A DNA stretch of 64,000 nucleotides from the IMG/VR virus record IMGVR_UViG_3300020159_001814, positions 13,793 through 77,792 of that record, one strand, 5' to 3'. The position numbers were made by a program, and so were the translations under genes. This DNA is from a virus. The notes beneath the pieces were generated by a model that had not been told where the DNA came from, did not search any database, and worked only from the letters and a program-made list of their open reading frames with translations. Of the stretch, positions 6,463 to 56,416 are shown piece after piece; position 1 is the stretch's first letter; every line of letters starts with the position of its first letter.

Positions 6463-6523
6463 TTTTTAAAAAATTAAGTTTATTTTTATTAATATTATTA
6501 TTTAATATTTTATTGTAAATAAT

Positions 6524-7012: not shown

Positions 7013-7036
7013 AATAGTATAATAATAACATGGGTC
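6991..7036. repeat. Perfect 15-bp inverted repeat (16-nt loop) over the start of the 6524..7012 gene
   Basis: GACCCATGTTATTAT (6991-7005) / ATAATAACATGGGTC (7022-7036). Confidence 0.85.
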
Positions 7037-7057
7037 ATCCCAAAACGAAAGTGTTTT

Positions 7058-8446: not shown

Positions 8447-8467
8447 ACTGTATAAATATCAAGTTAT

Positions 8468-8968: not shown

Positions 8969-8971
8969 TTA

Positions 8972-9639: not shown

Positions 9640-9641
9640 AA

Positions 9642-9992: not shown

Positions 9993-10001
9993 TTTATATC
10001 A

Positions 10002-10562: not shown

Positions 10563-11145
10563 TTAGTTTTTTTAATAGTTTAAAATCAAAAGCCGGATTT
10601 ACGTCTTTATGTGTTATATCAAAATTACTTTTAGATACCACACCGTTAAAGTTTTTAACATTATCCCACTTAACATTTGTCCCCAAACATTCTTTATTAA
10701 TGTTGAAATTATCACAAAGGGTTAATATTAACTTAGACAAGCTTTCTATTTGTTTATCTGTGTAAATGTCCCAATATGATTGATCCCTCCATTTTTTTTC
10801 AAATACTTCTCTTTTATAAATATCCCCTAACCATGTTACATACGTATCTTCTATAGGATTTTTTTTAAACCATCCTAAATTCTCTAAAGATATTGTTATT
10901 GCGTTTTTATCTATATCGATATCTTCCATATATAAAGAGTAACGACTTGGGTCCATTATGGTGTAAATGTCACCACTTTTTGTAATCACATAATTTGGTA
11001 AGTATGGGTTTTTTTTATTATAACGGTACCTTAAAGAATTAATATAATCTTTATAAGACCTTTTAGTGTCTGTCAGGATTATTTGTTTTTTATCTTTGTT
11101 TTCACCGAAATACTTAAAATCTGTCAATTCGTAGTGATCCACCAT
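10549..11145 (-). CDS. N-acetylmuramoyl-L-alanine amidase (Amidase_2/PGRP fold)-like protein, apparently degenerate active site
   Basis: Fold motifs NYVITKSGDIY, ISLENLG, YTDKQIESL..L, KDVNPAFD; expected Zn-ligand His positions read IILTDT and VVSKSN. Confidence 0.7.
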   Translation of the reverse strand: MVDHYELTDFKYFGENKDKKQIILTDTKRSYKDYINSLRYRYNKKNPYLPNYVITKSGDIYTIMDPSRYSLYMEDIDIDKNAITISLENLGWFKKNPIEDTYVTWLGDIYKREVFEKKWRDQSYWDIYTDKQIESLSKLILTLCDNFNINKECLGTNVKWDNVKNFNGVVSKSNFDITHKDVNPAFDFKLLKKLIGND

Positions 11146-12238
11146 TTCTATTTGTGTATGTCAGACGTTTAGGTTGTTCTTCAGTAGATTCCACTATGTT
11201 ATCTTCTTTTTTTTCTAAAATATCATAGTCTTTGTTTTCAAAATAATCTTCAACAGGTAAAAATTCTTTTTTTACGGGTACTTCCACTATTTTTTCAACT
11301 ATTTTTTCTACAGGTACTTCCACTATTTTTTCAATAATAATGGGGTCTACTTGGTCGGTACTTGGTCGGTTGTTAGTCGGTACTTGATCGGTAACTTGGG
11401 GGGTAACTTGGGGGGTAACTTGGGGGGTATCGTCTTCTTTTCGTCTTGATTTAAAAGCTTGGTTTGTGGCAATAACTAACGTGATGGCTAATGGGTCAAA
11501 CACAAAGATTAAAATTAGAATGAACAGGTTCGCAGTTCTTTTAATATCCCAATCAAGTAATTCACTAACATATTTTAAAGCTCCTAACTCACTTCCTGAT
11601 ATTTCTTCTGACTCCATATTTAAAATATCAACATCTAGTTTAGTTATACTATCATTCATATTATCTATTCTTTTAGCTATAGTATCTCTTCTTACTTGTG
11701 CTTGTGATAGTTGTGTTTCAAATGTTTTTCTATTTGCGTTATTAGCCCTTGTTACAACTTGACCCGTTCGTTTATCTACGGACTGAGTTGTTGTATTATT
11801 AGATAATCCATCCCTTAGTTTGGTAATGTCTCCATCTAATGTGTTTTTTTCCTTAGTTAATTCATCTTTGACTTCTTCAAACCTTTTCTTTTTAACTTCA
11901 ATGTTTTTAACTTGTTTTTCGTTTATTTCAAGTTTCGCTATATTCCCTTGGAATCCTGTACTTAGTAATCCGTATATCCCTAACGATGTGATCAGTGATA
12001 AAATCACAAGTGCGGTTGTTAAATATATCTTTAAAACCCCGTAAGTTTGTTTCCATTTGTCGTGTAGGTATGTTGCAATTGCAATTTTAGAAATTTCAAG
12101 GAAAGACCCCATTATAATAACTGGGATTGCAACACCAACAAAGACAATAGAAAGTCCAACAACGGAATAATATGCTGCAGTTCCTGATAGTCCCAACGCA
12201 CAAATTAACATAAACCACGGTAAAAATTTTTCTTTCAT
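11114..12238 (-). CDS. Multi-TM membrane protein with long coiled coil and repetitive tail
   Basis: Three N-terminal TMs, coiled coil, TM with FDPLA, PQVT and EKIVEVPV repeats. Confidence 0.75.
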   Translation of the reverse strand: MKEKFLPWFMLICALGLSGTAAYYSVVGLSIVFVGVAIPVIIMGSFLEISKIAIATYLHDKWKQTYGVLKIYLTTALVILSLITSLGIYGLLSTGFQGNIAKLEINEKQVKNIEVKKKRFEEVKDELTKEKNTLDGDITKLRDGLSNNTTTQSVDKRTGQVVTRANNANRKTFETQLSQAQVRRDTIAKRIDNMNDSITKLDVDILNMESEEISGSELGALKYVSELLDWDIKRTANLFILILIFVFDPLAITLVIATNQAFKSRRKEDDTPQVTPQVTPQVTDQVPTNNRPSTDQVDPIIIEKIVEVPVEKIVEKIVEVPVKKEFLPVEDYFENKDYDILEKKEDNIVESTEEQPKRLTYTNRNGGSLRIDRF

Positions 12239-12284
12239 ATTATTAAACTATAATTAATAAATACTTATAATAAAGATTAACATT

Positions 12285-12734
12285 ATGTCATTACTTAGAG
12301 AGTCAATAAGAAAGCACTTATTAGTTGAAAAAACTATCGCTCAAATTATTTCAAATATAGAAGTTTCATTCAATCTTGAAATTGATCGCAGTTTTCATGC
12401 TTTCGATAGAAAAAAAAGAAGCGACTTAGAAGGTAAGGGATTTGAATTAAGTGGTAAACACAGTTATGAATATAACCAAAGAGAAATAAGTAATCCTGAA
12501 ATAAAAGAAGTCATTAATTTATCAAAAAAAGAAATTGCGGAAAAAATTGTATCAAGAGAAATCAACGATGAAGTTCCGTTTATTATAAAGTCTTTGAAGT
12601 GGGAAGTGGCAATTACTATAATACCAATGTTTCAGGGTGGAACGTATTGGATATTAAAAGTTAAGACAGTATTTAGGGAATCATTAGATAACCCTTTTAG
12701 GGTTGGTAAAGAACAATTAGTTATTTGGGTATAA
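12285..12734 (+). CDS. Hypothetical protein, possible BECR/RelE-like ribonuclease fold
   Basis: SFHAFDR...REISNPEIKEVI...VKTVF pattern resembles HAxxR / Is..EI / vxTv small RNase folds. Confidence 0.45.
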   Translation: MSLLRESIRKHLLVEKTIAQIISNIEVSFNLEIDRSFHAFDRKKRSDLEGKGFELSGKHSYEYNQREISNPEIKEVINLSKKEIAEKIVSREINDEVPFIIKSLKWEVAITIIPMFQGGTYWILKVKTVFRESLDNPFRVGKEQLVIWV

Positions 12735-12899: not shown

Positions 12900-13187
12900 T
12901 TACAAACCTAACATTTCACCGACTTTTTTGAAATGTTTTTCAATTTTGTTCAAAGCTGCTGTTGCTTTTTGTTTGGTATTGAAATATGCGTAGAATTGAC
13001 AGGATTCAGAATCAAATTCGGCAGTTATCTTTAATGTTTTTTCAACAAAACTTTCAAATTCATATGCGTCTTCCCATTTACGAATTGTGTTTTTATTGGG
13101 GAAACCTGTTAATGTCCATTGAGCCCCTTCCCAATTACCTTTAGTGATTGTTAATCCTACATTATAGATTGTTTCTGTGTTTGTCAT
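12900..13187 (-). CDS. Hypothetical protein (early-type promoter)
   Basis: 95-aa ORF with full consensus promoter upstream. Confidence 0.75.
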   Translation of the reverse strand: MTNTETIYNVGLTITKGNWEGAQWTLTGFPNKNTIRKWEDAYEFESFVEKTLKITAEFDSESCQFYAYFNTKQKATAALNKIEKHFKKVGEMLGL

Positions 13188-13207
13188 AGTTTTTTAGTTT
13201 TGTTTTA

Positions 13208-13239
13208 CAAATATATGACGTTTATATCAATCTACCAAA
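13208..13239 (-). promoter_or_regulatory. Bacteroidota-type sigma70 promoter
   Basis: TTTG(13239-13236), 20-nt spacer, TATATTTG(13215-13208). Confidence 0.7.
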
Positions 13240-13243
13240 TTTA

Positions 13244-14047
13244 TTACCCTAAATATTCAAATAAATCTGAACATTCGTTTCTTAACTTACGTAAAGCTTT
13301 TTCTTTAATTTGTCTTACACGTTCTTTGGTTAATGAAAAATCAGTTCCAATATCTTCTAGTGTTCTTGGTGTGCCTGTAATCCCGTAATAGTCTTCAACA
13401 ATTACCCTTTCTCTTTCGTCAAGTACACACATTATTTTCATCATTTTTTCTTTTAGTGCGTCTTTTGTTGAAAATATTTCGTCGGGAGCAACTACGTTAT
13501 CATTTTTAATAATATCAACTAGTGTGTCACCGTCTTCGTTTATATGCATATCCAAATCAATCATTCTTGGTAGGTTTGCAAACTTATCAGATAATTCTTT
13601 ATTTGTTTTTTCGTTTTCACGTTTTTCTTTTTGCATGTCTTGTACGACATTTACCGGAAGTCTGATGGTACGTGAATTTTCGTTAAGTGATTGTAAAATT
13701 GATTGTTTAATCCACCAAACAGCGTAAGATATAAATCTATTATTTTTAGTCCAATCAAAATTATTAATCGCTTTCATTAAACCAAAGTTACCTTCAGCAA
13801 TTAAGTCAGACAAATCAATCCCTTGATTTTGGTATTGTTTTGCTACTGTAATAACAAAACGTAGATTACCTTCTAACATTTCTTTTTGGATCTGTTTCTT
13901 TTCTCTTTCGGTACAATCTTTAGAACAAATACGTTCAGATAGTATTTTTTCTCTTTCAGGTGTCATCACCTTTAATTTTCTAATATCTTTCAAATAAATT
14001 TGAATTTCATCCTGATTTAAAGGGTTTGTTGATTTTACTTCTTCCAT
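13244..14047 (-). CDS. RNA polymerase sigma-70 factor, RpoD/SigA-like without region 1.1
   Basis: NLRFVITVAKQYQNQG, DLIAEGNFGL, FISYAVWWIKQSI, TIRLP, region 4 TLEDIG...LTKERVRQIKEKALRKL. Confidence 0.93.
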   Translation of the reverse strand: MEEVKSTNPLNQDEIQIYLKDIRKLKVMTPEREKILSERICSKDCTEREKKQIQKEMLEGNLRFVITVAKQYQNQGIDLSDLIAEGNFGLMKAINNFDWTKNNRFISYAVWWIKQSILQSLNENSRTIRLPVNVVQDMQKEKRENEKTNKELSDKFANLPRMIDLDMHINEDGDTLVDIIKNDNVVAPDEIFSTKDALKEKMMKIMCVLDERERVIVEDYYGITGTPRTLEDIGTDFSLTKERVRQIKEKALRKLRNECSDLFEYLG

Positions 14048-29594: not shown

Positions 29595-29833
29595 ATATCT
29601 TCTTTATTTATTATTGTTCTTGTACCACCACTGAATAATAATATTTCATTTTCATTCAAAGGGTAGTAATATGTTATTTTTAATTCATCAATTTTATCAA
29701 AACAAAGTTCTTGTGTATTTGATTCAAAAATTTGATAGGGTGTTGCGGTTATACCATTTGTTTCTAACAAATCAATAACTTCCGTATTTGTGTATATTAA
29801 TCTCCAAATCATAATTAATAAGTTATTGTCCAA
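29591..29833 (-). CDS. Hypothetical protein
   Basis: Short ORF coupled to neighbours. Confidence 0.55.
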   Translation of the reverse strand: MDNNLLIMIWRLIYTNTEVIDLLETNGITATPYQIFESNTQELCFDKIDELKITYYYPLNENEILLFSGGTRTIINKEDI

Positions 29834-31251
29834 TTATAGGGTGACCCTGTTAAAAAGGATATTGCGGCTAAACCATTATATCCACCGCTCGATGAGTCAG
29901 GATCTGCGTTTGTTCCGCTTATATTTAAAGTAATGTTTGACCAACCTGTTGGGTTGTAAGTCGCATTTCCACTAAAATCCACTAATATGTGATTAACATC
30001 GGTAGTTGTCATATTGTTATTTTGTAAATCGATTCCCGCACGTCCTTGTGTAGTTCCAGAAACTAAAGTAGCGCCTGATAAACTAGTTAAGTCTATATAG
30101 TCTAAATTACAACCATATAAACTAAATGCCCTACTACCTAAACCATTACTTTCGTTTTTAAAATATTGTGTAGATGTAGGTAACAATATATTTGTTAAAC
30201 TACTGTTTCCATCAAGTCTTAAAATTGATGTTGATCCGGTTGTTGAAGCACCTAATTTTGTTAGGTTTCTTAAATCTAAGGTTCCGGTTAATTTACAATC
30301 GTTTGCCCTATATCGTGTAATATTATTTGGCGATGTTGCGTGTGTTATTCCAGTTAAATTAAAGTTAAACCAAACATCAAATTGCCCTCCTAACCCAGAT
30401 AATGGCGTTAAATCTAAATTTCCTATTAGATTACAAGAATTTGCGAAATATGATGTAAAAATTTGTGATGATGGTCCGTGAGTAATTCCTGTTAAATTTG
30501 TACTATATTGAACCCAAAATTGCCCACCTAAACCAGATAATGGCGTTAAATCTAACTTTCCTGTTAAATTACAAGAATTCGCTAAATATGATGTAAAAAT
30601 TTGTGATGATGGTCCGTGAGTTATCCCTGTTAAATTACTATTAGCACTAACCCAAAATTGACCTCCGAGTCCAGATAATGGCGTTAAATCTAAATTTCCT
30701 ATTAGATTACAAGAATTTGCTAAATATGATGAAATATTTTGTGATGATGGTCCGTGAGTTATCCCTGTTAAATTTGGATTATTATTAACTTGGAACTGTC
30801 CACCTAAACCAGATAATGGTGTTAAATCTAAATTTCCTGTTAAATTACAAGAATAGGCAATATATGATGAAAAAATTTGTGATGATGGTCCGTTAGTAAT
30901 TCCTGTTAAATTTGGGTTTGTATTGACTCTGAAGGTGCCTCTAAAACCAGATAATTGTGTTAAATCTAAATTACCATATATATTATCATTATCAAAAATA
31001 AAACTATTTGTATTCCTAAAACTATTAACCCTAATTTGGATTGTCCTAATATCGGTGTCTAATGTAAAACCGGTATATGTTAATCCATTTCCGGCGGTTT
31101 GTGTAATATTTGTTCCATTATCTAATCTCCATGATACTCTCCCTCCCCCATCAAACCCTATTGTCGGTTCGAAAAAACTTGTTGACCCACTCTTTTGAAA
31201 AGTAAGGATTTTACCTATATTATTTCTTGACGTGAATTGTTGCCTACTCAT
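29815..31251 (-). CDS. Leucine-rich-repeat protein in tail module (candidate receptor-binding protein)
   Basis: About five 46-aa (138-nt) repeats NLxGxLDLTPLSGLGGQFxVxxNxNLTGITHGPSSQxxxSYxAxSC. Confidence 0.75.
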   Translation of the reverse strand: MSRQQFTSRNNIGKILTFQKSGSTSFFEPTIGFDGGGRVSWRLDNGTNITQTAGNGLTYTGFTLDTDIRTIQIRVNSFRNTNSFIFDNDNIYGNLDLTQLSGFRGTFRVNTNPNLTGITNGPSSQIFSSYIAYSCNLTGNLDLTPLSGLGGQFQVNNNPNLTGITHGPSSQNISSYLANSCNLIGNLDLTPLSGLGGQFWVSANSNLTGITHGPSSQIFTSYLANSCNLTGKLDLTPLSGLGGQFWVQYSTNLTGITHGPSSQIFTSYFANSCNLIGNLDLTPLSGLGGQFDVWFNFNLTGITHATSPNNITRYRANDCKLTGTLDLRNLTKLGASTTGSTSILRLDGNSSLTNILLPTSTQYFKNESNGLGSRAFSLYGCNLDYIDLTSLSGATLVSGTTQGRAGIDLQNNNMTTTDVNHILVDFSGNATYNPTGWSNITLNISGTNADPDSSSGGYNGLAAISFLTGSPYNWTITY

Positions 31252-31261: not shown

Positions 31262-32095
31262 TTATATATAATCATTACCAACTGTCCAATACATTATTGA
31301 GCCGTTATATGTGAACGTTAATATATCAGTTGCCCCGCCATTAGATGTTAGTACTACAGGTCCCCCACCATTTGCTACCTTATGTGTGCCTGACGCACCA
31401 TTTACTTGATTAAAAAATAAACTTCTTCCCCCAACACCGTCTTGTATTACTATCAAAGTCCCGTATTCACCATTTCTTACATTAATTAATGATAATGTTG
31501 TGTTTGCCGTTAGTGTTGCTTCATAATTTGTACTTAATCCGGAAACGTCCCAAACTACCGTTGATCCTGTTGACCCTATGTCGTTAAATGGGTTTATACT
31601 GACACCACCACCAGACGTACCACTACTTCCACTTGTACCATTAATTCCTGATGTTCCATTAATTCCACTAGTTCCATTTATTCCTGATGTACCACTAGTT
31701 CCATTAATTCCTGATGTACCACTAGTTCCATTTATTCCTGATGTACCACTAGTTCCATTAATTCCCGAAGTACCACTAGTTCCATTAATTCCGCTAGTTC
31801 CTGAAGTTCCATTAATTCCCGAAGTACCACTAGTTCCATTAATTCCCGAAGTACCACTAGTTCCATTAATTCCCGAAGTACCACTAGTTCCATTAATTCC
31901 CGAAGTACCATTAATACCACTGGTGCCCGATCCGCCGGATGTACCACCAAAAATAGTTATAAGTTGTTGTAATTCTGCTTTATAAGATGACCCATCAGGG
32001 TTTTGTGACGGGTCCCCAGTATAAACAATATGTATTAGGGTTGTTGGGGTAATTGCCGTTGATGCCGCTAATGTCCTGTCCGTTAATCTTGCCAT
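31262..32095 (-). CDS. Collagen-like (Gly-X-Y) fibre protein
   Basis: About 100-aa uninterrupted G-T-S/G-I-N triplets between globular ends. Confidence 0.8.
   Translation of the reverse strand: MARLTDRTLAASTAITPTTLIHIVYTGDPSQNPDGSSYKAELQQLITIFGGTSGGSGTSGINGTSGINGTSGTSGINGTSGTSGINGTSGTSGINGTSGTSGINGTSGTSGINGTSGTSGINGTSGTSGINGTSGTSGINGTSGINGTSGINGTSGSSGTSGGGVSINPFNDIGSTGSTVVWDVSGLSTNYEATLTANTTLSLINVRNGEYGTLIVIQDGVGGRSLFFNQVNGASGTHKVANGGGPVVLTSNGGATDILTFTYNGSIMYWTVGNDYI
31610..31945. repeat. 9/27-bp coding tandem repeat (GINGTSGTS)
   Basis: Repeated GTACCACTAGTTCCATTAATTCCYGAW units. Confidence 0.9.
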
Positions 32096-32115: not shown

Positions 32116-32397
32116 TTATTGAAATTTATATTCTTCACCATCTTGGAACTCAAATATTAATCCGTCTTGGAAAAGTTTATCTGAAACACTTAATGTTTCA
32201 CAATACGTACAATTATTATCATCTATTAATTTTATAGTATAAGTTTCATAAGTTTCATAAGTTTCAGGTAATATAAAACTATATGGTATGGTCGTTATTG
32301 TATCAATATATTGACAAGTACCGTAACACGTATCACAAACCCATATGTGGTATGGTGAAGTTCCTAAAGTTATCGTATTTATTGTTACGTTTATCAT
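32116..32397 (-). CDS. Small Ig/SprB-like structural protein (paralog 1)
   Basis: GTSPYHIWVCD..C...IKLIDDNNC; C-terminal FQDG repeats. Confidence 0.65.
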   Translation of the reverse strand: MINVTINTITLGTSPYHIWVCDTCYGTCQYIDTITTIPYSFILPETYETYETYTIKLIDDNNCTYCETLSVSDKLFQDGLIFEFQDGEEYKFQ

Positions 32398-32415: not shown

Positions 32416-34011
32416 TTATTTACAAAATCCATTAACTTTACATTTTTGTGTTAAAGAACCTGTTTTATCATTAACCTCATAGATATAATCTTGGTATTTG
32501 ATATAATCCACAGTTAATTTTCTTGTTAAACTACTATCCTTATACACATATATACCATCGGTTAATGTTTCTACACCGTATTCCGTATAGATTGTTATTG
32601 GTGATCCAAAGTTAGTCAATTCACAAACAGGACAAGAAATTGTATATTCACCTTTAACTTCCCAAGATTTAAACACAGGTGTTGGTGTTGGCTCAGGTGT
32701 AAAACATTCTATACAATCAACATATGTTGTTGCTGTTGTAGCAGTAAACACATCTTGGTTTGTTGCTATAAATCCTGTTGTTGGGTAATAACCAACAACA
32801 TTTGTGACATAAACCCAACAATTACCATTATCATCTTTTAATACATTAGTTTCACAAAGATTTAGTGGTGGCGTTGCGGTTTGAACTATCATTGAATTAT
32901 TAGTACATGACGTAAATATAAATTGGGTTCCCATAGGATACGATGTTGGTGTTGGTGTCGGTGTTAGTGTTGCCGTTGGTGTTGGTGTCGGTGTTGCAGT
33001 TGGTGTTGGTGTCGGTGTAACACAAACACTACAATCACTAGTATATGCAGTAATTATTAATTCAAGATTACTATTTGTACTACTAAATAAATCTTTAGTG
33101 TATGTTACACATTTTATTTGGTCACTAATTACCGCCAAGAAAGTTGTACCAGTACTTAATGGTATACCGCTAAACACTATAGGTTCAGTAACGTAATATT
33201 TATTAAACGTACCACATTCACTTAATTCTTTTGTTCTTGTACAAATAAATTTACCAGTATCTATTAAATAAGTAACACTATCCGCAGATGGCACAATAAC
33301 GTTATAACAAGGTGTTGGTGATGGTGTTGGTGATGGTGTTGGTGATGGTGTGATTTCTTCTGTTGATATATCGACAATAAACCCTTCACAAACATCGGGT
33401 GTTGGTGTTGGTGTTGGTGTAGGAGTTGGTGTTGCGGTTGGTGATGCTGTTGGTGATGGTGTAATACCACATTCTATTAATACATCAAAATCAAGTATAG
33501 AACAAGGGTCATATGGTGTTGGTGTAGGTACACATACTCCATTATATAAAATGGTCTCGTCAAGGTCGGGTGATGTTGATTCTGTCGGGTTTTGCCCAAA
33601 AAAATCACATTCACCACCTAAAGTTTCACTTAAACACCATTTTATACCATCATAAAAAATGTAACCATTGTTTGTTATTCCACTGTAATATGTATTAGTA
33701 TTATAACTTCCCGCAAAAGTATATGACCCGTTATATCCAGTAAATGCACTTAAAGAAATATTAACGCAAAAATCTTCAGACCCACAATAGTCACTACAAC
33801 CACCAGAACCACAACCACCATTTGATATTGATACCCCGTCAAATATTACAGGTATACTACCGACACCACTAGACACTATAGTATAGCACCCATTTATTAT
33901 GTTAGTATCATCTGTAATTTCAAAACCATCACCGACGGTCGTACTATACGACCAACCCGTGGCACTATATACTAGATTATAACAACAACTACTTAAAACA
34001 ACATTAGCCAT
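32416..34011 (-). CDS. Cys-rich structural protein with Pro-Thr mucin-like linkers
   Basis: Several (PT)n/(PS)n tracts separating Cys-rich modules. Confidence 0.75.
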
Positions 34012-34065
34012 TCAGATTTAAACTTTATTATATAAATAATCGAAAGTTTATTTTATTGAAGTGTT

Positions 34066-34860
34066 TTATGAGAATATGTTAAAATATTGTCTCCAATCTG
34101 ATTTGACAATATTGTAACTTTCGGGGTTTAGATTATAGCAAAAATCATAATACTTTTCTTCGCTACCAACAACACCTTGTTCTAAATACATGTCTATATA
34201 CCAAATAAAGTCGGCAATTAATTTATCAATCGTATTATTGTTTGGCACAAAAAAACAACCACCGTGAATAAACCTATACTGTGAAAACAAATGAAAAACA
34301 TAATCACCTAATGATACGGTATCTTGGTGATTAAAGAATGTTATTTTATCTGAATAACCGTTATTTATTTTTTCTAAATTAGGCCAGTTAGGTATTGGCT
34401 GATTTATTTCATGTCTCAGAACCCCAGCATCCGCCCAAATAAAAAAATCAGAATCAAAATGTTTTTTCATTATTGATTCTTTTATGTAAAAAAGTTTATT
34501 AAAAATTACAATATTATATAATGGTTTAGTCATTTCTGGAACCCTAAAATGTATTTTATTTTTAAATTCTTCAGAATTCATTAAACTATTTACCTTTTCA
34601 TAATACATTTGATGAGCAACCAAGTCCTCAACTTTTCTTATTTCAAAAATAGTTTTTTCTAAATTAGGGTCACAAACCATTCTATTTTTTTTAATTTCAT
34701 CGTATAATTTTTCATCAGTATAAATAACCATTGGCATGTCGTACATTAATAGGGCTTTCATCCAGTGAAGATATGTACCATATGCTAATTCATATCCATC
34801 CCAAGTATCCCTACCAATATCAAACAATGCCGTTACAATGACCGGTTTTTCTATTTTCAT
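34066..34860 (-). CDS. HtrL/YibB (WlaTC)-like glycosyltransferase
   Basis: IVTALFDIGR, YNIVIFNK, FFIWADAG, HGGCF, SEE motifs. Confidence 0.7.
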   Translation of the reverse strand: MKIEKPVIVTALFDIGRDTWDGYELAYGTYLHWMKALLMYDMPMVIYTDEKLYDEIKKNRMVCDPNLEKTIFEIRKVEDLVAHQMYYEKVNSLMNSEEFKNKIHFRVPEMTKPLYNIVIFNKLFYIKESIMKKHFDSDFFIWADAGVLRHEINQPIPNWPNLEKINNGYSDKITFFNHQDTVSLGDYVFHLFSQYRFIHGGCFFVPNNNTIDKLIADFIWYIDMYLEQGVVGSEEKYYDFCYNLNPESYNIVKSDWRQYFNIFS

Positions 34861-36104
34861 AATTTTCCTGTTAGTCTTTCACCCCAACCTTTTGATGTTG
34901 TGTGTGTCCATACAACCCATTCTGTTGGTTTTATTGTTGTATTAAATTCCCTCCAAACATTTACAAAATCCCCTTGTTTTGACAAAATGTTGTTTATTTC
35001 GTTTTTATCGGCGTCTTTTCTAAATATTTCATTACCATTATCATCTAAAAATATTACGGCCCAAAAATCATAATCAGATTCTTTTAAACTACCTTTATAT
35101 AGGTCAATACAATGTTTAAAAACAGTTGAAAAGCTGTTTACCCATTCGTCTTCAGTTTCATAATTATATGGGTTTGGTGGGTATTGTTTATTAATAGTGT
35201 ATTGTTGTACCGCTCTTTTTGAAAAAAGTAATCCGGCATATTTTTCATAATCTTTTAACGTTCTTTCCTTTCCAAATCCGTATATATCATCATGGCCTTC
35301 TTGCATTATACCATCCATACCAAACAACATTCTATTAAGTAAATGGGCCTTTTCATTTTTTTTATACCATTCTTTATCGTCGTCCCATTGTTTAGTTCTA
35401 CCGTTTCTTGTATATTCATGCCATATAACAACTTTATGTGGGTGAAATAAATCATACCCATGTGTATATGCTCTAACCGCTATTGATATTTCTTCGCCGT
35501 GAAAATAAAAATTAGGGTTATGTTGTACTTCTTTTGAAAATACTCCTAATGTAAAACAAAAATGTGCGGAATAGAATCTTGATGTAATTGGTTCTGTTAA
35601 CGTTTCCCAATTTGGGATTGTCTCAGGTAAAAAGAATACCGCACCTTCGGGTATGAATCTATCAAATACCATTCTCCAAGGAACATTAACCCTACCTTCG
35701 GGATCATTTTGTGGATTATAAGACGAAACATATCCAGTTAAAAGTGGTTTTTTATGTCCTTTTTTTTGTAAATCAACAACCATGTTAATTAGTGTTTCAT
35801 CCCAATTTTTTTCAAATCTCATGTGTGAATCAATCTGCAAAGTATAATCTTCACCATCATATAACTGTTGGACCATATTTCTTGCCCAACAAACCCCTTT
35901 AGCATCTAAATATGGGACATCAACAATCCTAAATCTTTCATCATTTTCATATTCACTAAGGTCGTCAAATTTATCATCTATGTGATATTGTCGACATATA
36001 CCAAATACTAAACTTTCAGGATTTTTTGCGTTCAATAAACAATTCTTTATTGTTGGTATCAATTCGGGGTCCCTATAAGACGCGATTTGTATAAAAATTT
36101 TCAT
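34857..36104 (-). CDS. GT60-like polypeptide alpha-GlcNAc transferase (Skp1 GlcNAc-transferase family)
   Basis: IFIQIASYRDPEL, AKGVCWARN, QIDSHMRF..NWD, FHGEE, H.Y.R. Confidence 0.8.
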   Translation of the reverse strand: MKIFIQIASYRDPELIPTIKNCLLNAKNPESLVFGICRQYHIDDKFDDLSEYENDERFRIVDVPYLDAKGVCWARNMVQQLYDGEDYTLQIDSHMRFEKNWDETLINMVVDLQKKGHKKPLLTGYVSSYNPQNDPEGRVNVPWRMVFDRFIPEGAVFFLPETIPNWETLTEPITSRFYSAHFCFTLGVFSKEVQHNPNFYFHGEEISIAVRAYTHGYDLFHPHKVVIWHEYTRNGRTKQWDDDKEWYKKNEKAHLLNRMLFGMDGIMQEGHDDIYGFGKERTLKDYEKYAGLLFSKRAVQQYTINKQYPPNPYNYETEDEWVNSFSTVFKHCIDLYKGSLKESDYDFWAVIFLDDNGNEIFRKDADKNEINNILSKQGDFVNVWREFNTTIKPTEWVVWTHTTSKGWGERLTGKL

Positions 36105-36173
36105 ACTACCAATATATATAAAAAAAAATTTGTGTAAATAATATTTAATATCTACGTATAACAGTCGGTGTTG

Positions 36174-36575
36174 TTATATATTTAATTCAAAAGTATAACC
36201 TGACAAACTACATAAAATAGGTTCAATAGTAGGTGTGGGTGTAGGTGTAGGTGTTGCGGTTGGTGTTATTTTATTTAATTCAAAACTATATCCAGACATA
36301 CTACATAAAACAGGTGTTGGTGTAGGTGTTGGTGTTGGTGTAGGTGTTGGTGTTGGTTCGCAAGGGGAATCAATCAAATCTACGCACCCATAATTATCAA
36401 CAATCCTAACTTTTAATAACCCTTCTTTAGGAAAATAATTATCAGAGTTAATAAAAACATTTGGTGGTATTGAAGTTACTCCCGATATATAAAAACAACC
36501 GGTTAAATCCCAATTACAAAGATATATGTCATACGGACCGACCCCATTTGTTACACCTGTTATTTCAATAATCAT
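36174..36575 (-). CDS. Small Ig/SprB-like protein with Pro-Thr tracts (paralog 2)
   Basis: GVGPYDIYLC...C...VRIVDNYGC plus two (PT)n tracts with duplicated LCSxSGYxFELN. Confidence 0.7.
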   Translation of the reverse strand: MIIEITGVTNGVGPYDIYLCNWDLTGCFYISGVTSIPPNVFINSDNYFPKEGLLKVRIVDNYGCVDLIDSPCEPTPTPTPTPTPTPTPVLCSMSGYSFELNKITPTATPTPTPTPTIEPILCSLSGYTFELNI

Positions 36576-36576: not shown

Positions 36577-36864
36577 TTATATCCAAACTAATCCATCCCC
36601 ACTTTCAGTGGTTATTATGAGTTCGTTCTCAGTTAAAATAAAGAAGGTATCTAATGTACAATAAACATATTTAAAAGTAAAACACCCAGTACTATCAACC
36701 AATTTTATTATCAATGTTTGTGCAGTAGAAAAAAAGGAATTTAAGGTGTATGTTCCACCTGTAGGTCCAAGCAAAAAACAAGTATTCATATATTCGTCAC
36801 AAACATAAAAACTATAGGGTGGTGTGCCACCTGTTTCACCTGATATGATAAGTTGACTTGTCAT
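36577..36864 (-). CDS. Small Ig/SprB-like structural protein (paralog 3)
   Basis: GGTPPYSFYVCD...C...IKLVDSTGC. Confidence 0.65.
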   Translation of the reverse strand: MTSQLIISGETGGTPPYSFYVCDEYMNTCFLLGPTGGTYTLNSFFSTAQTLIIKLVDSTGCFTFKYVYCTLDTFFILTENELIITTESGDGLVWI

Positions 36865-39113
36865 AATATAAAGTATGTTGAGTCATGAATTGTGTATGCA
36901 CTTGTAGTCCCTGTGTAACTATATATTAAGAATTCACTTGATGTTGTTATACCGGTTAATGATCTAGTGTAAATTTCAAAATCCCTTCTATCTGATGGGT
37001 TATTTAATTTTACAGTATAATAGTAATTATACCTTCCATAATAACCTAAATTATTTGATGATGCTTGGTAAGTAAAACCAGATGTATCAAAATTAAATGT
37101 TTTACCACTTAATGAATTTACTAATGTTGGTGATGTTCCGCTATAAACAATTGTTTCATTTATATATTTTGGTATATATATGTATCCTACTGATGTCGTT
37201 CCTGTTTGTGATGTTGTGCCGCTGCACAGAGCATAAACATAAGCAACAGGATTTGTATATCTAGAACTAACAGTTGTTGTTCCAGTATAATTATTTGTTG
37301 TCCCTGTAGATTGTGTATTAATAGTATTAACAACTGATAATACATTTCCTTGTATACTACAATTAGGGTCATATGTTAAACCATCATAAACCGTCGGCAT
37401 TGTAAATCTTAAAGTATAATCACTACCAGTTATGCCAGTTGTAACAACTGATCCAGTATGTAAAAGGTATTGTTTAACTGTAGACCCATCTGAACCACAT
37501 ATACTGGTACCTGTGGTGGATGGTAGTGACAAATAAAGATATCTGTAATATCTAATATCTGTTGGATCACTTGGAGTCCCGCTCCATGGGCCTGATGAAG
37601 TAGCACAAATACCTGTGGTGGTTGTTGTACCAGTAATTGCCTTTAAATATGAATTATAATATGCGTTAAAATCCGTAAAATCTGTAAACTGAATGTCTAT
37701 TATACCTAATGTTCCTCCACTAATATATTTTTTAAATGTTATTGTTCCTGTGGAGCTAGCAGCACAGATGTCAGGTGTGGTATAATAAGGGTTAGTTGCA
37801 GATGCTTGGATTGTATTTAAATATAAAAAATTACCCACCCCTATTAAATTATTAACACCGGAACCGTACATGCTAACATCATAGTAAGGCACATTATTAC
37901 TTAAGATAAAAGACCCGTCAGTTGCAATATATTTACTAAAATCATCAGCACTTCTACTACAAGCACTAACACTAAATGATACTGTATTGGAATTACATCC
38001 ACCGGTAATTGTTGTGATTGTTGATGCGGAAATTTTATAAGGAAAATTATTTAAAATACAAGTATCTTGTGAAAAACCACTTAAACATGTAAAATAAAAA
38101 TCCCAATTAGTTTCATTGTTAAACTGATTTGGTATGACTTCAATTCTTAAAGAGTCTCCTATGTTTCTAGTTAAACCAGTTAAACATGTCACCTTTTTAA
38201 GGTATGTTGCTTGTGAAATAGTATCGGCACTTTTTGGAAATTTATTTAAACTAAAATCGGATCTAATTAAGTTAGACCCAACTGTTATGTCTTCAATTAA
38301 AAGTTCTTCAGAATATGCGGAACCAATATATGTTAATCTTAATCTATCTTCAACAGCAAATCCTTTAAACTTCCAAGCGAAATAATCAGTAATACCCGTA
38401 AAAAGAAATGTTGCTTCCAAAGCCTGTGGTGTCGATCCAACAGATGCTGATAAAAAATTTACCCTATGTTCATAATATGGGTTATCACTACTATCACCAT
38501 TACCACAAGTAAACGCGTCTACAGTTACTGTTGTTAAATCAAAACATTCTAATTCTGCGGGGATATTACCTGTGCCCCCTGTTTGTGAAAAAGTTAGACC
38601 ACTTAATTTTATTTTATCAATGATAGGTACATATGTACCTGCTTGTGCAAATATAGAACTAGTGCCCGTTAATGGATGCGTAAAAGAATATGGTGTAAAT
38701 TCAGAACCCTTTCCCGAAACATAAACAGGATTTGTAGTATCCCCTGTTTCATACCAAAATATTCTATAATCAGTAATGTTTGATTCGCAAGCACCTGTAA
38801 GGTTACCAGCAACAATTCTACCAACAGTCGATGCACTATAACTACTAAAATCCAATTCACAACTAACACATAAATCATTAGACTGCACAAAAGTATCACA
38901 ATAACACCCTGTCGATATATCTAATATTCTTATTTGTGTTGTTCCGTTGGGTACTTCAATATAATACGGACATTCATTGCCGGTTATTGCTGATAAATTT
39001 ATACTACTTTGTATTGGGGTAGTAAACCCATCATAATCACTATATATATTCATAACCCCACCAAGTGGTGTTGTTCCTGTGTAAGATAAACATGTTACTG
39101 CCGAAAATGACAT
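36861..39113 (-). CDS. Thr/Ser/Gly-rich structural protein
   Basis: 750 aa, beta-rich composition, in tail module. Confidence 0.65.
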   Translation of the reverse strand: MSFSAVTCLSYTGTTPLGGVMNIYSDYDGFTTPIQSSINLSAITGNECPYYIEVPNGTTQIRILDISTGCYCDTFVQSNDLCVSCELDFSSYSASTVGRIVAGNLTGACESNITDYRIFWYETGDTTNPVYVSGKGSEFTPYSFTHPLTGTSSIFAQAGTYVPIIDKIKLSGLTFSQTGGTGNIPAELECFDLTTVTVDAFTCGNGDSSDNPYYEHRVNFLSASVGSTPQALEATFLFTGITDYFAWKFKGFAVEDRLRLTYIGSAYSEELLIEDITVGSNLIRSDFSLNKFPKSADTISQATYLKKVTCLTGLTRNIGDSLRIEVIPNQFNNETNWDFYFTCLSGFSQDTCILNNFPYKISASTITTITGGCNSNTVSFSVSACSRSADDFSKYIATDGSFILSNNVPYYDVSMYGSGVNNLIGVGNFLYLNTIQASATNPYYTTPDICAASSTGTITFKKYISGGTLGIIDIQFTDFTDFNAYYNSYLKAITGTTTTTGICATSSGPWSGTPSDPTDIRYYRYLYLSLPSTTGTSICGSDGSTVKQYLLHTGSVVTTGITGSDYTLRFTMPTVYDGLTYDPNCSIQGNVLSVVNTINTQSTGTTNNYTGTTTVSSRYTNPVAYVYALCSGTTSQTGTTSVGYIYIPKYINETIVYSGTSPTLVNSLSGKTFNFDTSGFTYQASSNNLGYYGRYNYYYTVKLNNPSDRRDFEIYTRSLTGITTSSEFLIYSYTGTTSAYTIHDSTYFIL

Positions 39114-39136
39114 AATTTTATTTTATTAATTTTAGT

Positions 39137-41464
39137 TTATGGGCAAGGTATTTCTTCTATACAACTCACATCATACACTATTGTTAATGATAAATTTACT
39201 TCAACATCCGCCAAAGGATTTGAGTCACCGTCACAAGATGATATGATTTGTAATGTATTGTTAATAGTATCTAATGTGTATGATTCAACATCACTTATAC
39301 CTGATAATATGTTTTCTATTGTTTGTTTCCATAATAAATCTGATGGTACGTCGGTGTTCGTTGATCCAGTATAAAAACTTTCGGTATATGATATTCCACT
39401 TATTTCTAAATTACATATGTATTCCGCAGAATTCAAACTACACCCAGTGTATCCGTCAGTTATGTCAAGATAACCTTCACCCAACATTTCTAAAAACCCT
39501 CTTTTAGCCCCTGTAGTTGTTGTAAATAAATTTTCACATATGTTATAAACACCATAACTACTAACTATATTTGTTAAACAATTAATACTAAAAGGTAATG
39601 TCGCAGTACATCCGTTTGAATCTGTAACAATAACAGTGTATGTTCCGGCAGTAAGTCCTGTCACAGTACTACCTGTTTGTGAACAACAGACATTTTCAGA
39701 CCAATCATATTCAAAGGTTGGTTTACCTTCATATATAACAACCTCCGCAGTTCCGTCATCCCCATTAACACAATCATTTGTTACAATATTTGCAACCAAA
39801 TTACCAGCAGTTGTTACATTAATGTCTTTTTTTACTGAACACCCTTGTTCATCCGTAACCGTAACCGTATATAACCCCTCGGTTAAGTTATTAAAGGTAT
39901 ATGATGTCAAATTAGTATCTAATATTGTTTGACCATCACTTAAAAGGTAGTCTAAAACACCCGTATATCCAGTACCAACATCAATTTTAATAAATCCATT
40001 CGAAGAAAAGCAAGTCGCTCCACTTGTTGTTGCTGTAAAATCAAATTTTTGTACAGAACTAATATTTAAAAATGTACTATATGAACATTCTGTACCTGAT
40101 CCAGAAATACTTAATAGGTATGTATCGTTTGGTAAATTATTAAAAGTGTAATTTTGATTTTGAGATACATTACCATATAATTGATTAGTATTTTGTCCTG
40201 ATAGTGCGTACGCGTAATACCCACTTAACCCTTGTATTTCAACATAAACTGACCCGTTATTAATATCACAATTTGAATTCGTAATGACAGTGTTAACAAC
40301 ATTAAACCCATTTACAGGACTTAAAAACCCACCGAGAATCGTCTCACAAAAATTAGCATCCCTAACAACCACACTATAACCACCACTAGACAAACCAGTT
40401 ATCGAAAACGTGTCAGATAATGTGTATCCTACTTGTGATGTACTTGCCGAATAATAAAAAGGTACAGTTCCACCTGTTAATGTATAATTTAAAGTCCCAT
40501 CAGAAGAAAAACAAGACGGATTATCCGAAGTTAGTAACCCTAAACCTAAAGGTTGTGCCTGCCCTATAGATTCATTTTTTGTTGTCGAGCAACCTAAACT
40601 ATCAGTTACAGTACAAGAATATGTTCCTATTGTTAATCCCGTAATTAATTGTGTTGTTTCACCGTTTGACCATAAGTATGTATACGGACCATTTCCAGTA
40701 ATACCGGTTATGGCTAATTTACCTTTATCTATTACACATGTTGATGTGTTTACTTTCCAGAACCCAAAATCGACACTGGTGCTTGCCGAAACTATGACAT
40801 TTTCTGTGTCTGCAGTTGTTGATCCATAGTCGTATATAGTCGCATAATAAATACCGTCACTTAGATTACTAACCAAATATGGGAAAGTATTTGTGGTGTA
40901 TAACCCATAAAATGAATTATCCCTATAAACAACAATATTATAAGGGCTGGCTGATGATGTTGCACTTAAACTAAAAGAACCGTTATTACCACCACATGTT
41001 GTTCCACTAACATTATATATATTAGCATTAAAACAATTACTGATGTTAACATTAATATATAATTCATTATTTTGTAACCCTAACGTATCATTTAACCTAA
41101 AAACATAAGTACCACCTGTAAGTCCGGTAAAATTAAATGGGCCGTTAGCCGTTTGTCCACTTAAAGTTCCAGGAATAACATTATCCACAGTATAAGGTAG
41201 TGTCCCACCAAAACCATTTATTGTTAAATTACCGTACCCGCTATCACAAATCCCCGTAACTGTGAAATTATAACTTAAAGGTCCGTAATTACAACTATCT
41301 GTACATGCACTTGTTGGTTCTAAGTACACCCCTACGGCCGAACCTGAGTATATTACGTCAACACACACACTTTCAAGGCCAGGTGATAAACCTGTTTGAT
41401 TTAAACCACAACAGTCTATATAATTATAGTACCCACCTAATGTAAAACCTGATACACAAGCCAT
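39137..41464 (-). CDS. Multi-SprB-repeat Cys-rich structural protein
   Basis: Multiple GxxPYxYxW...GLxxGTYxVxVTDxxGC repeats. Confidence 0.8.
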   Translation of the reverse strand: MACVSGFTLGGYYNYIDCCGLNQTGLSPGLESVCVDVIYSGSAVGVYLEPTSACTDSCNYGPLSYNFTVTGICDSGYGNLTINGFGGTLPYTVDNVIPGTLSGQTANGPFNFTGLTGGTYVFRLNDTLGLQNNELYINVNISNCFNANIYNVSGTTCGGNNGSFSLSATSSASPYNIVVYRDNSFYGLYTTNTFPYLVSNLSDGIYYATIYDYGSTTADTENVIVSASTSVDFGFWKVNTSTCVIDKGKLAITGITGNGPYTYLWSNGETTQLITGLTIGTYSCTVTDSLGCSTTKNESIGQAQPLGLGLLTSDNPSCFSSDGTLNYTLTGGTVPFYYSASTSQVGYTLSDTFSITGLSSGGYSVVVRDANFCETILGGFLSPVNGFNVVNTVITNSNCDINNGSVYVEIQGLSGYYAYALSGQNTNQLYGNVSQNQNYTFNNLPNDTYLLSISGSGTECSYSTFLNISSVQKFDFTATTSGATCFSSNGFIKIDVGTGYTGVLDYLLSDGQTILDTNLTSYTFNNLTEGLYTVTVTDEQGCSVKKDINVTTAGNLVANIVTNDCVNGDDGTAEVVIYEGKPTFEYDWSENVCCSQTGSTVTGLTAGTYTVIVTDSNGCTATLPFSINCLTNIVSSYGVYNICENLFTTTTGAKRGFLEMLGEGYLDITDGYTGCSLNSAEYICNLEISGISYTESFYTGSTNTDVPSDLLWKQTIENILSGISDVESYTLDTINNTLQIISSCDGDSNPLADVEVNLSLTIVYDVSCIEEIPCP

Positions 41465-54044: not shown

Positions 54045-55883
54045 TTAAGAGAAGTCTACGGATTTAAATGTTTTGGTTCTTACTTTTATATCTGAACTGT
54101 CAAATCTAACTTGATATGCTTGGTCTGGTTCAGCAAATATTGTATCGTCAATAAGTTGTATTTCTCTTGTTAAAGGGTCTAAATATTTTTGTGATGTTTC
54201 TGATGATGAATATTTACCACCAACTTTATTAAATACCTTTATTTCAGGTACACTTAGGATACCGCCTAAATTTTGTATTCTTTTTCTTATTTCAGAAACA
54301 TTAACACTACCACCAAGATCTCTATTATTTGGGTTCATGTAATCAGAAACTTGACTAATAACTGCACCAACGACTTCACTTTGACTTCTATCGGATTCTA
54401 ATACAACCGATATTTCAAATTCTAAGTCAATGACCTTTGCACTATCTATAACTATATAATCATTAACCATTCTGTATTTAGAAAGGTATGTTGCTAAATT
54501 TGTTTTTAAGTTGTTCGACGCTACTTGGGTTAATTTACCACCTGTTTCAAATGATAATAACTGAACGACAATTTTATTATCTTTTTCTGTTATGGAAACT
54601 TTACCGGGAGCTCCGAATCTTCCAGGCATTGTGTCTATTATAGATTTATAATCATTCACCGTTACCGCTCTTTTTTGTGCCGCGAAATTAAACGCAACCA
54701 TATTTCTTACTTCTTCTGTTGTTGGTGGGTTTGATCCCCCAACCGCTGCAGTAACATTTCTTACGCTTAACGATTGTTTAACATTTCTATTAATAGTTTC
54801 GTTGGGTCCGTTTATTACAAAATCAATTGTACCGACTTGGTTAATTGCTCCGACACCAACATTAGTTGCGGTTCCACCACCAACCCTATATTGTACAAAT
54901 ATTGTAGTGTTTGGTTTTACTGTTAACCCCAAACCTATATTATTTTGATAATCACCTAATTTTAGATCTACCCCAACATTAGTGAATTGTTTTAATTGTT
55001 CGTTTGGTGTGGTTGTCCCAGCACCAAATTGTATTTTAAAATAACTTTCTGGTGTGTATTCAGTAATAAATCTATTGTCTGTTTGGACATACTTCCCTCC
55101 TCTAACACCATTAGAATCCACAGGCTTAGTGGTATCCTCAACAAACACAGTATCTTCAGCCAAAGCATCGACTTCATACCATTTACCGTTTTCAGCTTGG
55201 AAATCAGAATATTTAGGAGTTCCTTGAAAGGTTGTACCGTCTTTTTGTATAATACTACTAACCCCTAAAACATTTTTTTCAGGTAAAAAGAAATTAAAAA
55301 ATGGAACAACGTCTGATGGGTTTATAACCCTTTTAAAAACTTTTGTTGTACCATTAACTAATACTTCCCTTTTGGTTATAACATAATTAATAATTTTATT
55401 ATTCGCATCGAAACTTGGGACTTTAGTTCTATTAACTTGTCCTTGTTCGTTATATTGTGTTGAAAAGTCTATATCATATAAATTTTCAAATGAGTTTCCT
55501 GCTCCGAAAAATTGGGATCCTGCACGAATTTTACCTAGATACCTAACATCTTCAGAATCACCAAAAGCGGGTACCGTGATTGATAAATCAACAACCGCAA
55601 CTGATGGTCTATACCCCGGCACTTTTAAACCGTATGTTCTTGCTATATTATAGACTGACGATCTTTGTTGTGCATACTGCAATACCGTTTCTTGTAAACT
55701 TCTATCTATATGGTAATGTAGGTTATCGGCGATACCCGCATTTAAATCCATTAAAACAGAAAACACCGAAGCATCATTAAAATTTTGAATTAAGTCGGGA
55801 TAATAACTTTGTACGTAATTTAATAATTCGTCCCTAAGTCCAACGAAATCCCTTTCGGTATATGATATTTTTCTTTCTGCCAT
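54045..55883 (-). CDS. Baseplate wedge subunit (T4 gp6/P2 gpJ-like)
   Basis: YTERDF, DFNDAS-like NFNDAS, YRVGGG..TNV, AVGG, RAVTVNDY. Confidence 0.85.
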   Translation of the reverse strand: MAERKISYTERDFVGLRDELLNYVQSYYPDLIQNFNDASVFSVLMDLNAGIADNLHYHIDRSLQETVLQYAQQRSSVYNIARTYGLKVPGYRPSVAVVDLSITVPAFGDSEDVRYLGKIRAGSQFFGAGNSFENLYDIDFSTQYNEQGQVNRTKVPSFDANNKIINYVITKREVLVNGTTKVFKRVINPSDVVPFFNFFLPEKNVLGVSSIIQKDGTTFQGTPKYSDFQAENGKWYEVDALAEDTVFVEDTTKPVDSNGVRGGKYVQTDNRFITEYTPESYFKIQFGAGTTTPNEQLKQFTNVGVDLKLGDYQNNIGLGLTVKPNTTIFVQYRVGGGTATNVGVGAINQVGTIDFVINGPNETINRNVKQSLSVRNVTAAVGGSNPPTTEEVRNMVAFNFAAQKRAVTVNDYKSIIDTMPGRFGAPGKVSITEKDNKIVVQLLSFETGGKLTQVASNNLKTNLATYLSKYRMVNDYIVIDSAKVIDLEFEISVVLESDRSQSEVVGAVISQVSDYMNPNNRDLGGSVNVSEIRKRIQNLGGILSVPEIKVFNKVGGKYSSSETSQKYLDPLTREIQLIDDTIFAEPDQAYQVRFDSSDIKVRTKTFKSVDFS

Positions 55884-56416
55884 TATATATTAATTATAAC
55901 AAATTGTTTAGCACCAAACGGGTCGGTGTCATTAGAATATTCTATTTTTAATTTTGCAGTATATTCTTCAGTATTTTTACCTGGTAACCTATAAATACCA
56001 ACATCTTTTAGTTCTTCATCAGAATTAAAAGTTTCAAAAACTTGGGTTATTGTACCATCATCCACGTATGTTTTTGGGTCAATTATTGTTTTTGGTCCCG
56101 CCGGTTTGTTTTCTAATAAAACATATGGTGTTATAGTAATAGCAATAATATTTAAATCGGGAACATAAATTTCACATTGTTTTTGTATATCTTCTTTAAT
56201 CGCATCAAATGTTTGCCCATCCATTGGATCGAAAATAAATTCATAAAGTCGAGTACCAAAATCGGGTAACATAAATCGACTACCCTTTCTAGTAAGAATT
56301 AAATGTAGTAGACTTGATCGTATTTCTTGATCCCTATCCCTCGACAATGATAGATATTTACCAATCGCGCTTGGTCTAAATGGGAAATTAATACCAAATG
56401 TTTCGTTAGTTGCCAT
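55883..56416 (-). CDS. Baseplate gp25/GPW-like protein
   Basis: GINFPF...IRSSLLHLILTRKGSRFMLPDFGTRLYEFIFDP. Confidence 0.88.
   Translation of the reverse strand: MATNETFGINFPFRPSAIGKYLSLSRDRDQEIRSSLLHLILTRKGSRFMLPDFGTRLYEFIFDPMDGQTFDAIKEDIQKQCEIYVPDLNIIAITITPYVLLENKPAGPKTIIDPKTYVDDGTITQVFETFNSDEELKDVGIYRLPGKNTEEYTAKLKIEYSNDTDPFGAKQFVIINI

Follow-up and report, generated by a model that had tools for sequence, protein, structure and literature searches.

A pair of overlapping glycosyltransferase genes located within a block of fibre genes was found in a 64,000-nucleotide stretch of DNA, referred to here as the window, which covers positions 13793 to 77792 of the 77.8-kb IMG/VR record IMGVR_UViG_3300020159_001814 and belongs to a large uncultured lake phage. 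The first gene encodes a GT60-family enzyme, the predicted fold of which is nearest to polypeptide GalNAc-transferases, and the second encodes a protein of the HtrL/YibB type; proteins with Pro-Thr (PT) and Pro-Ser (PS) tracts are encoded on both sides of the pair. The reading favoured here, with modest confidence, is that the two enzymes O-glycosylate fibre proteins of the phage itself in the host cytoplasm. Comparison with related viral contigs showed that the window contains the minimal two-gene form (initiator and HtrL) of a hypervariable glycan-building cassette, the insertion point of which in the fibre block is conserved.

The completeness of the IMG/VR record is estimated at 26%, corresponding to a phage genome of about 300 kb. 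The G+C content of the window is about 30%, and nearly all genes are located on the minus strand. The genes central to the analysis are the following:

34857..36104, minus strand: GT60-family (PF11397) soluble GT-A glycosyltransferase, 415 amino acids (aa), putative initiator; assigned from Pfam, PHROGs and an AlphaFold2 (AF2) model
34066..34860, minus strand: HtrL/YibB-domain (PF09612) soluble GT-A-fold protein, 264 aa, putative second (extending) glycosyltransferase; assigned from Pfam and an AF2 model
36174..36575, minus strand: 133-aa fibre-associated small protein with two PT linkers, candidate acceptor; open reading frame (ORF) and tract scan
32416..34011, minus strand: Cys-rich protein of several domains, 531 aa, three PT/PS linkers, candidate acceptor; ORF and tract scan
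31262..32095, minus strand: collagen-like fibre protein, alternative acceptor; PF01391, E 5e-16

The sequence-only reading that preceded this analysis had described two overlapping glycosyltransferase genes inside a structural operon, with long PT/PS tracts in the proteins on both sides and a Thr/Ser-rich collagen-like fibre nearby, and this description was borne out. Both ORFs are present on the minus strand, the stop of the GT60 gene and the start of the HtrL-like gene overlapping by 4 nucleotides, and the tract scan located the PT/PS tracts in both flanking proteins. The collagen-like protein consists of G-T-S and G-I-N repeats and contains 31% Ser+Thr. The pair lies on the same strand as the upstream gp25-like and gp6-like baseplate genes, which head the structural block, and is surrounded by genes of SprB-repeat, leucine-rich repeat (LRR) and collagen-like fibre proteins; the proteins of the fibre block contain 20–31% Ser+Thr.

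The glycosyltransferase pair

The GT60 protein was matched by PF11397 with E 1e-69 and 236 bits (cut-off 21); the match consists of two stretches, profile positions 2–43 and 95–349 of 352, with about 50 positions absent. It was also assigned to phrog_24687 (E 1e-168), labelled in PHROGs just 'glycosyltransferase'. The motifs of the earlier GT60-type assignment were found in the translation, namely, SYRD (residues 9–12), DSH (92–94) and GEE (203–205). Among 45 homologues with 36–83% identity, D92, H94, E205 and H229 are invariant, and within the SYRD motif at least 90% of the sequences retain R11 and D12. By analogy with GT27 enzymes, D92 and H94 (DxH) and the downstream His are probably metal ligands.

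NCBIfam contains no family for the GT60 protein or for the PT proteins. Solved structures of GT60 or HtrL proteins were not detected in the PDB by either single-sequence or profile searches, and folds were therefore compared. For the AF2 model of the GT60 protein, with a predicted local distance difference test score (pLDDT) of 95.9, Foldseek followed by VIA-align placed polypeptide GalNAc-transferases (ppGalNAc-Ts) at all ranks from 1 to 29, with Z 19–22, about 270 aligned residues, a root mean square deviation of 3.5 Å and 10–14% identity, while generic GT-A enzymes were ranked after them (Z 16–18). The catalytic domain occupies approximately residues 1–300, and an extra beta-rich C-terminal domain residues 326–414. 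Profile and structure searches thus agree with the earlier assignment, placing the first enzyme in PF11397 with a modelled fold nearest to the ppGalNAc-Ts, and the protein is considered a putative initiator of the peptide-glycosyltransferase type.

Relatives of the GT60 protein are encoded in 327 viral stretches, and about 4600 protein-library clusters at 50% identity match it, the nearest Atlas clusters being 97–98% viral. Two tandem GT60 paralogues are present in the related genome G008 (G008:C1:6137-8300), and the protein library contains giant proteins in which the GT60 domain occurs up to four times, one such protein being 2461 aa long.

The HtrL-like protein was matched by PF09612 over profile positions 4–265 of 267 (E 2e-23, 83.7 bits, cut-off 24.1). 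Its equivalog scores, 82.9 bits vs 264.9 for TIGR02192 and 55 vs 342 for NF008462, indicate a distant member of the HtrL/YibB family rather than an orthologue of E. coli YibB. In agreement with the predicted GT-A transferase, the AF2 model (pLDDT 91.8) has a GT-A fold, for which the top Foldseek hits were GT6 enzymes (BoGT6a, alpha-3-GalT, ABO transferases), GT8-like enzymes, XXYLT1 and LARGE1 (E 2e-5, probability 1.0, TM-score about 0.47). The modelled fold appears nearest to retaining glycan-extending enzymes, the similarity being moderate, and the protein is regarded as a putative extender. Residues W142, D144 and G146 are invariant in its homologues. Neither enzyme contains a hydrophobic transmembrane (TM)-like segment according to a simple hydropathy scan.

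Cassette architecture and Pro-Thr tracts

The comparison set comprised the 80 best viral loci, with 67–76% identity to the GT60 protein of the window and ORFs called mechanically. GT60 is the first cassette gene in all 80 loci, and an HtrL-domain protein is encoded downstream of it within the retrieved flank in 68. In the related genome G001 (98% complete) the HtrL gene lies about 18 kb past GT60, beyond the retrieved flank, and the absence of HtrL from some loci therefore reflects flank length. This stretch of G001 (G001:C1, about 60.5–79.9 kb) contains genes of a uridine-kinase/PRK-family protein and a GT61 enzyme. The HtrL protein of the cassette is usually a 556-aa fusion and is sometimes fused to a TylF methyltransferase.

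From 0 to 13 or more genes are located between GT60 and the HtrL gene in the viral loci. Clustering of the 211 intervening proteins gave 54 groups, with representatives that match GT25, GT10, GT7, GT34, GT32, GT61, PLOD-GT, RXYLT1 and DUF3431; the methyltransferases are of the FkbM, TylF and CmcI types. In the hydropathy scan, TM-like segments were found in none of the 211 intervening proteins, 68 HtrL proteins and 4 window proteins. A second search, anchored on a conserved 982-aa neighbour, showed GT60 downstream in all closer relatives with enough flank, except for one, in which GT60 is located elsewhere in the same record. Accordingly, the two-enzyme system of the sequence-only reading stands in that both enzymes are present, but the pair is not fixed, being the minimal form of a hypervariable cassette.

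Among the 67 ORFs of the window, PT/PS tracts were found in the two flanking proteins only, three in the 531-aa protein and two in the 133-aa protein. In the latter, a conserved 70-aa N-terminal domain is followed by the PT linkers (DNA positions 36306–36359 and 36213–36254), and behind each linker stands a 15-aa repeat peptide, LCS-M/L-SGY-S/T-FELN; these repeats may be docking peptides. Linkers of the 531-aa protein are encoded at 33397–33432, 33310–33351 and 32941–33018. This protein represents a phage-only family, the Atlas matches of which are only phage 'hypothetical protein' clusters, and neither flanking protein received a name from Pfam, NCBIfam or Atlas. Homologues of the 531-aa protein are encoded directly after the cassette in 21 loci and carry PT tracts in all 21.

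For counting, a PT tract was defined as at least three PT/PS dipeptides; of 64 non-redundant architectures, the 55 with the HtrL gene within the flank were counted. Upstream of the cassette, tracts were found in 33/52 genes at position -1 and 13/35 at -2, and downstream in 27/47 at +1, 2/36 at +2 and 0/22 at +3, compared with 15/124 far genes and none of 278 cassette genes. The odds ratio of border to far genes is 10–13, with Fisher p 1.6e-11 at -1 and 4.9e-9 at +1. Border proteins form 26 clusters, 10 of which have members with PT tracts, and the median Ser+Thr fraction is 0.26 at -1 vs 0.11 inside the cassette. In the related genome G005 (99% complete), where the cassette order is GT60-523-292-176-796(HtrL), a 2499-aa protein with PT tracts and 44% Ser+Thr is encoded directly after the cassette (G005:C1:84000-103999, ORF 5223-12722, minus strand); it is a truly mucin-like giant protein.

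Bacterial genomes and metagenome-assembled genomes (MAGs) also encode GT60 homologues, with 36–65% identity; an HtrL-domain protein comes next in 23 of 73 loci. Within two genes of bacterial GT60, PT tracts are enriched about 7-fold (12/257 vs 4/602 genes, p 2e-4). The best bacterial matches (58–65% identity) come from MAG contigs of Saprospiraceae and Lewinellaceae, where each is followed by an HtrL fusion; this is a hint either of the host group or of phage contigs having been binned together with host sequences.

Proposed glycosylation and its alternatives

According to the favoured reading, the two soluble glycosyltransferases would be made late in infection alongside the tail-fibre proteins, and the GT60 enzyme would attach the first sugar to hydroxyl side chains of fibre-type proteins in the host cytoplasm. 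The donor would be a UDP-N-acetylhexosamine, by GT60 family analogy UDP-GlcNAc, transferred in alpha linkage (PMC6939170). The most probable sites would be Thr/Ser residues, or hydroxyproline, in the PT linkers joining the small folded domains of both flanking proteins, and the HtrL-like GT-A enzyme would add a second sugar. Relatives, which carry up to a dozen or more extra glycosyltransferases and sugar methyltransferases, would build longer, methylated, strain-specific glycans; since the extra enzymes are located between the same two conserved genes, related phages would display different glycans. The benefit might be linker stiffening, protease resistance, shielding or adhesion.

A broader version of this proposal can be put forward only tentatively, namely, that in a widespread group of freshwater jumbo phages, their distant Xanthomonas relatives and some bacteria, GT60 and HtrL frame a rapidly swapped set of glycosyltransferases producing strain-specific 'glycan barcodes' on Pro-Thr stalks of the tail fibres, with the simplest, two-sugar form in the window. 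If true, such barcodes would represent a viral equivalent of O-antigen diversity, tuning adsorption, shielding or escape from recognition.

A number of observations weigh against O-glycosylation of the flanking proteins. The related genome G006 (96% complete) yielded neither PF11397 nor PF09612 in profile searches, yet PT tracts are kept there: a 193-aa protein with three long tracts is encoded in inverted orientation where the compacted fibre block ends (G006:C1:57000-76999, ORF 13185-13766, minus strand). This phage is a natural reference without the enzymes, suited to comparison. The PT tracts are therefore not dependent on the enzymes and work as linkers without them. In 62 of the 73 bacterial GT60 loci no PT tract is present within two genes. 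The border counts share ancestry, the synteny being largely inherited, and the statistics ignore phylogeny. The flanking proteins are placed in the virion by gene context, and glycosylation in this phage is deduced from genes, folds, position and the comparative pattern. The gene of E. coli HtrL/YibB lies in the lipopolysaccharide (LPS) core cluster, and to our knowledge no function has been tested for HtrL/YibB proteins.

The acceptor residue could also be hydroxyproline rather than Thr, given the P4H-type 2OG-Fe(II) oxygenase (PF13640) genes of two relatives. In both G001 and G005, which are GT60-positive, these genes are located far from the cassette, while none was found in GT60-negative G006 (three genomes only) or in the 78-kb record of the window:

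G001:C1:288908-291681: P4H-type oxygenase, PF13640
G005:C1:26916-27191: P4H-type oxygenase, PF13640
G005:C1:272129-272440: P4H-type oxygenase, PF13640

Taken against the sequence-only reading, which had combined an initiator, an extender and PT acceptors into a glycosylated fibre coat, the enzyme folds, their solubility, the position in the fibre module and the border enrichment of PT tracts are in agreement, but the independence of the tracts from the enzymes is not. Similarly, co-occurrence of the glycosyltransferases with PT genes is strong at the cassette borders and breaks down in G006, where tracts exist without the enzymes, and in the 62 bacterial loci lacking tracts; the independent occurrence that had been named as refuting the proposal was thus in part observed.

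These same data leave room for the rather unlikely explanation that virion proteins are glycosylated while the PT tracts are mere flexible linkers, the acceptors being the collagen-like G-T-S repeats, SprB-like or other fibre domains. All fibre-block proteins are rich in Ser and Thr (20–31%), collagen-like genes are located directly upstream of GT60 in about 10 relatives, and retention of PT tracts in G006 fits this explanation as well. The collagen-like region of BclA from Bacillus anthracis is O-glycosylated on Thr. However, the positional enrichment is specific to PT-tract proteins at -1 and +1, and a preference for Thr in Pro-rich tracts is known for both ppGalNAc-Ts, the nearest structural relatives, and GT60 enzymes of protists (PMC6939170).

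It is unlikely that the cassette remodels a glycan of the host envelope, be it LPS core, O-antigen or capsule, for instance as a block to superinfection, and was inserted among fibre genes by chance. An association with LPS loci is known for the HtrL/YibB, GT25 and GT9 families, the HtrL-like gene of phage Bellamy lies in a cluster with nucleotide-sugar and carbamoyltransferase genes, and the variable gene content resembles O-antigen loci; glycosyltransferase clusters of jumbo cyanophages were attributed by Iyer and Aravind to host polysaccharide modification (PMC7824862). At the same time, no flippase, polymerase, polyprenyl-phosphate transferase or TM-like segment was found in 279 cassette proteins, the first enzyme most resembles peptide transferases, and the genes are part of the structural block. 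From Bacteroidota-type to Xanthomonas phages, the cassette retains its insertion site, either between fibre genes or next to the baseplate block.

Glycosylation of a host protein or a small molecule, for host takeover or as part of a secondary metabolite, rather than of the virion, is improbable. GT-A enzymes act on many types of acceptors, and the gene sets of XacN1 and Bellamy that include a carbamoyltransferase resemble natural-product tailoring, but the window contains no biosynthetic partner genes, and the link to fibre and PT proteins is tight and conserved.

Least probable of all is glycosylation of phage DNA (hydroxymethyl-pyrimidine or similar) for restriction evasion: many phage glycosyltransferases do modify DNA, and GT-A and GT-B enzymes can build multi-sugar glycans on DNA (bioRxiv 10.1101/2023.12.21.572611), but the DNA-modifying GT-A enzymes described so far are similar to JGT and TarP rather than to PF11397, and known systems adjoin ThyA-like hydroxymethylases or 5mYOX/TET genes, none of which is present near the pair in the fibre block (the record being 26% complete). 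GT60-positive G001 has no PF00303 match, while canonical ThyA is encoded in both GT60-positive G005 and GT60-negative G006. The search with PF12851 (Tet/JBP) gave no match anywhere, controls included, and is uninformative.

Known systems and neighbouring genes

The GT60 proteins of Xanthomonas and Stenotrophomonas jumbo phages are 42–47% identical to that of the window. In XacN1, the cassette comprises five genes, encoding GT60 (ORF334, 46% identity), a carbamoyltransferase, two further ORFs and an HtrL fusion (ORF330), and converges on a block with genes of an M23 peptidase, two baseplate wedge proteins, a 3313-aa protein, two small ORFs, a GT9 enzyme and one ORF. The layout in Xoo-sp13 is identical, and the giant proteins (about 3300 aa) of both phages contain three PT/PS tracts each near the C-terminus. 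Assignment of the XacN1 cassette to a replication module was rejected, as it is located at the junction converging on the baseplate and giant-fibre block. Purified XacN1 virions showed at least two Schiff (PAS)-stained glycoprotein bands, and ORF328 and ORF334 were suggested by the authors as responsible for their formation (PMC5852040). The experimental hints are limited to this staining, from which neither the enzyme nor the acceptor can be identified. XacN1 thus resembles the window phage in the GT60 protein, the HtrL domain of ORF330 and a cassette abutting the baseplate and a PT-tract giant protein, but differs in the five-gene composition with a carbamoyltransferase and in the host phylum.

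HtrL-like genes accompany NodU/CmcH-type carbamoyltransferase genes both in a sugar-nucleotide cluster of Synechococcus phage Bellamy (167366-182154) and in the Xanthomonas phage cassettes, which suggests carbamoylated glycans in these phages.

Polypeptide alpha-GlcNAc-transferases of the GT60 family are represented in protists by Gnt1 of Dictyostelium and Toxoplasma, acting on hydroxyproline of Skp1, and by mucin-type enzymes of Trypanosoma cruzi and Dictyostelium (PMC6939170). The phage enzyme belongs to the same PF11397 family with a DxH-type motif set, and Gnt1 is likewise soluble and cytoplasmic and starts a short glycan extended by other soluble transferases. In contrast, the phage protein belongs to a clade that is 97–98% viral in the Atlas, lacks about 50 profile positions and has the extra C-terminal beta domain. 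The closest solved structures, GT27 ppGalNAc-Ts of animals and apicomplexans, start mucin-type O-glycosylation on Thr/Ser in Pro-rich tracts and share the order of a GT-A domain and a C-terminal beta-rich domain; they differ in being Golgi membrane-anchored, with a ricin-type lectin domain, and in the low identity (10–14%) to the phage protein.

Virion glycosylation as such is already known in mycobacteriophages and was proposed for XacN1, and comparable machinery occurs in eukaryotic giant viruses. Chloroviruses and mimivirus use soluble, eukaryote-like glycosyltransferases and sugar methyltransferases of their own to form strain-specific glycans on capsids or fibrils (work of Van Etten, cited in PMC5852040), but they infect eukaryotes and have other initiating enzymes and acceptor contexts. 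Systems of phage DNA glycosylation (T4 alpha/beta-GT; 5mYOX-associated) also include soluble phage glycosyltransferases, sometimes several in a row, but their genes are associated with those of base-hydroxymethylating enzymes and with DNA-metabolism modules, and the enzymes represent other families; neither feature was found here. Phage-encoded glycosyltransferases of mycobacteriophages modify their own structural proteins according to Freeman et al. 2023, as cited in PMC12619734; as described there, the acceptors are C-termini of capsid and tail-tube subunits, while the putative acceptors here are fibre-module proteins. In large freshwater Bacteroidota phages, glycosyltransferases were reported in 2025 among the core genes, with no target assigned (PMC12619734). 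A literature search on GT60 in phages and on O-glycosylated tail fibres found nothing relevant, and no paper was found on a variable cassette that starts with GT60, ends with HtrL and is associated with PT-tract fibre proteins.

Documented cases of particle glycosylation are limited to few phages and concern mainly capsid and tail-tube proteins of mycobacteriophages, while here a protein-type initiator, related to enzymes that start mucin coats, is located inside the receptor-binding apparatus of very common uncultured lake phages. Should glycosylation of the fibres be real, genome-based host prediction would miss a hidden and rapidly evolving sugar layer on which host range, the stability of particles and their recognition by hosts and grazers depend. 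The system is directly testable, consisting of two small soluble enzymes and a 133-residue candidate acceptor.

Other genes of the block mentioned above are the following:

36577..36864, minus strand: small N-domain family, paralogue of 95 aa that has no PT linker
32116..32397, minus strand: small N-domain family, paralogue of 93 aa that has no PT linker
36861..41464, minus strand: two large Ser/Thr-rich fibre-type proteins of 750 aa and 775 aa (the latter with SprB repeats), upstream of the pair
54045..56416, minus strand: baseplate wedge genes, gp6-like (54045-55883; phrog_219, E 6e-23) and gp25-like (55883-56416; PF04965, E 6e-9)

Products of 36577-36864, 36174-36575 and 32116-32397 share the 70-aa N-terminal domain with two conserved Cys residues; in relatives, some members of this small family terminate in a short F.FMDG..Y.FQ tail and others in a PT linker followed by a Cys-rich C-terminal domain.

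No convincing terminator separates the pair from its neighbours, scans for sigma-70 promoters and terminators gave results near chance, and the operon structure is therefore deduced from spacing and strand. The Bacteroidota promoter motif TAnnTTTG was found 139 times vs 117 ± 11 in shuffled sequences, barely above expectation. A/T-rich elements of the TATATA type are present in both gaps, 34012–34065 before the gene of the 531-aa protein and 36105–36173 before GT60; they might be phage late promoters, though the motif tests were not significant. The gene of the LRR-like fibre protein (29815–31251) contains near-identical repeats of 138 nucleotides, differing at few positions.

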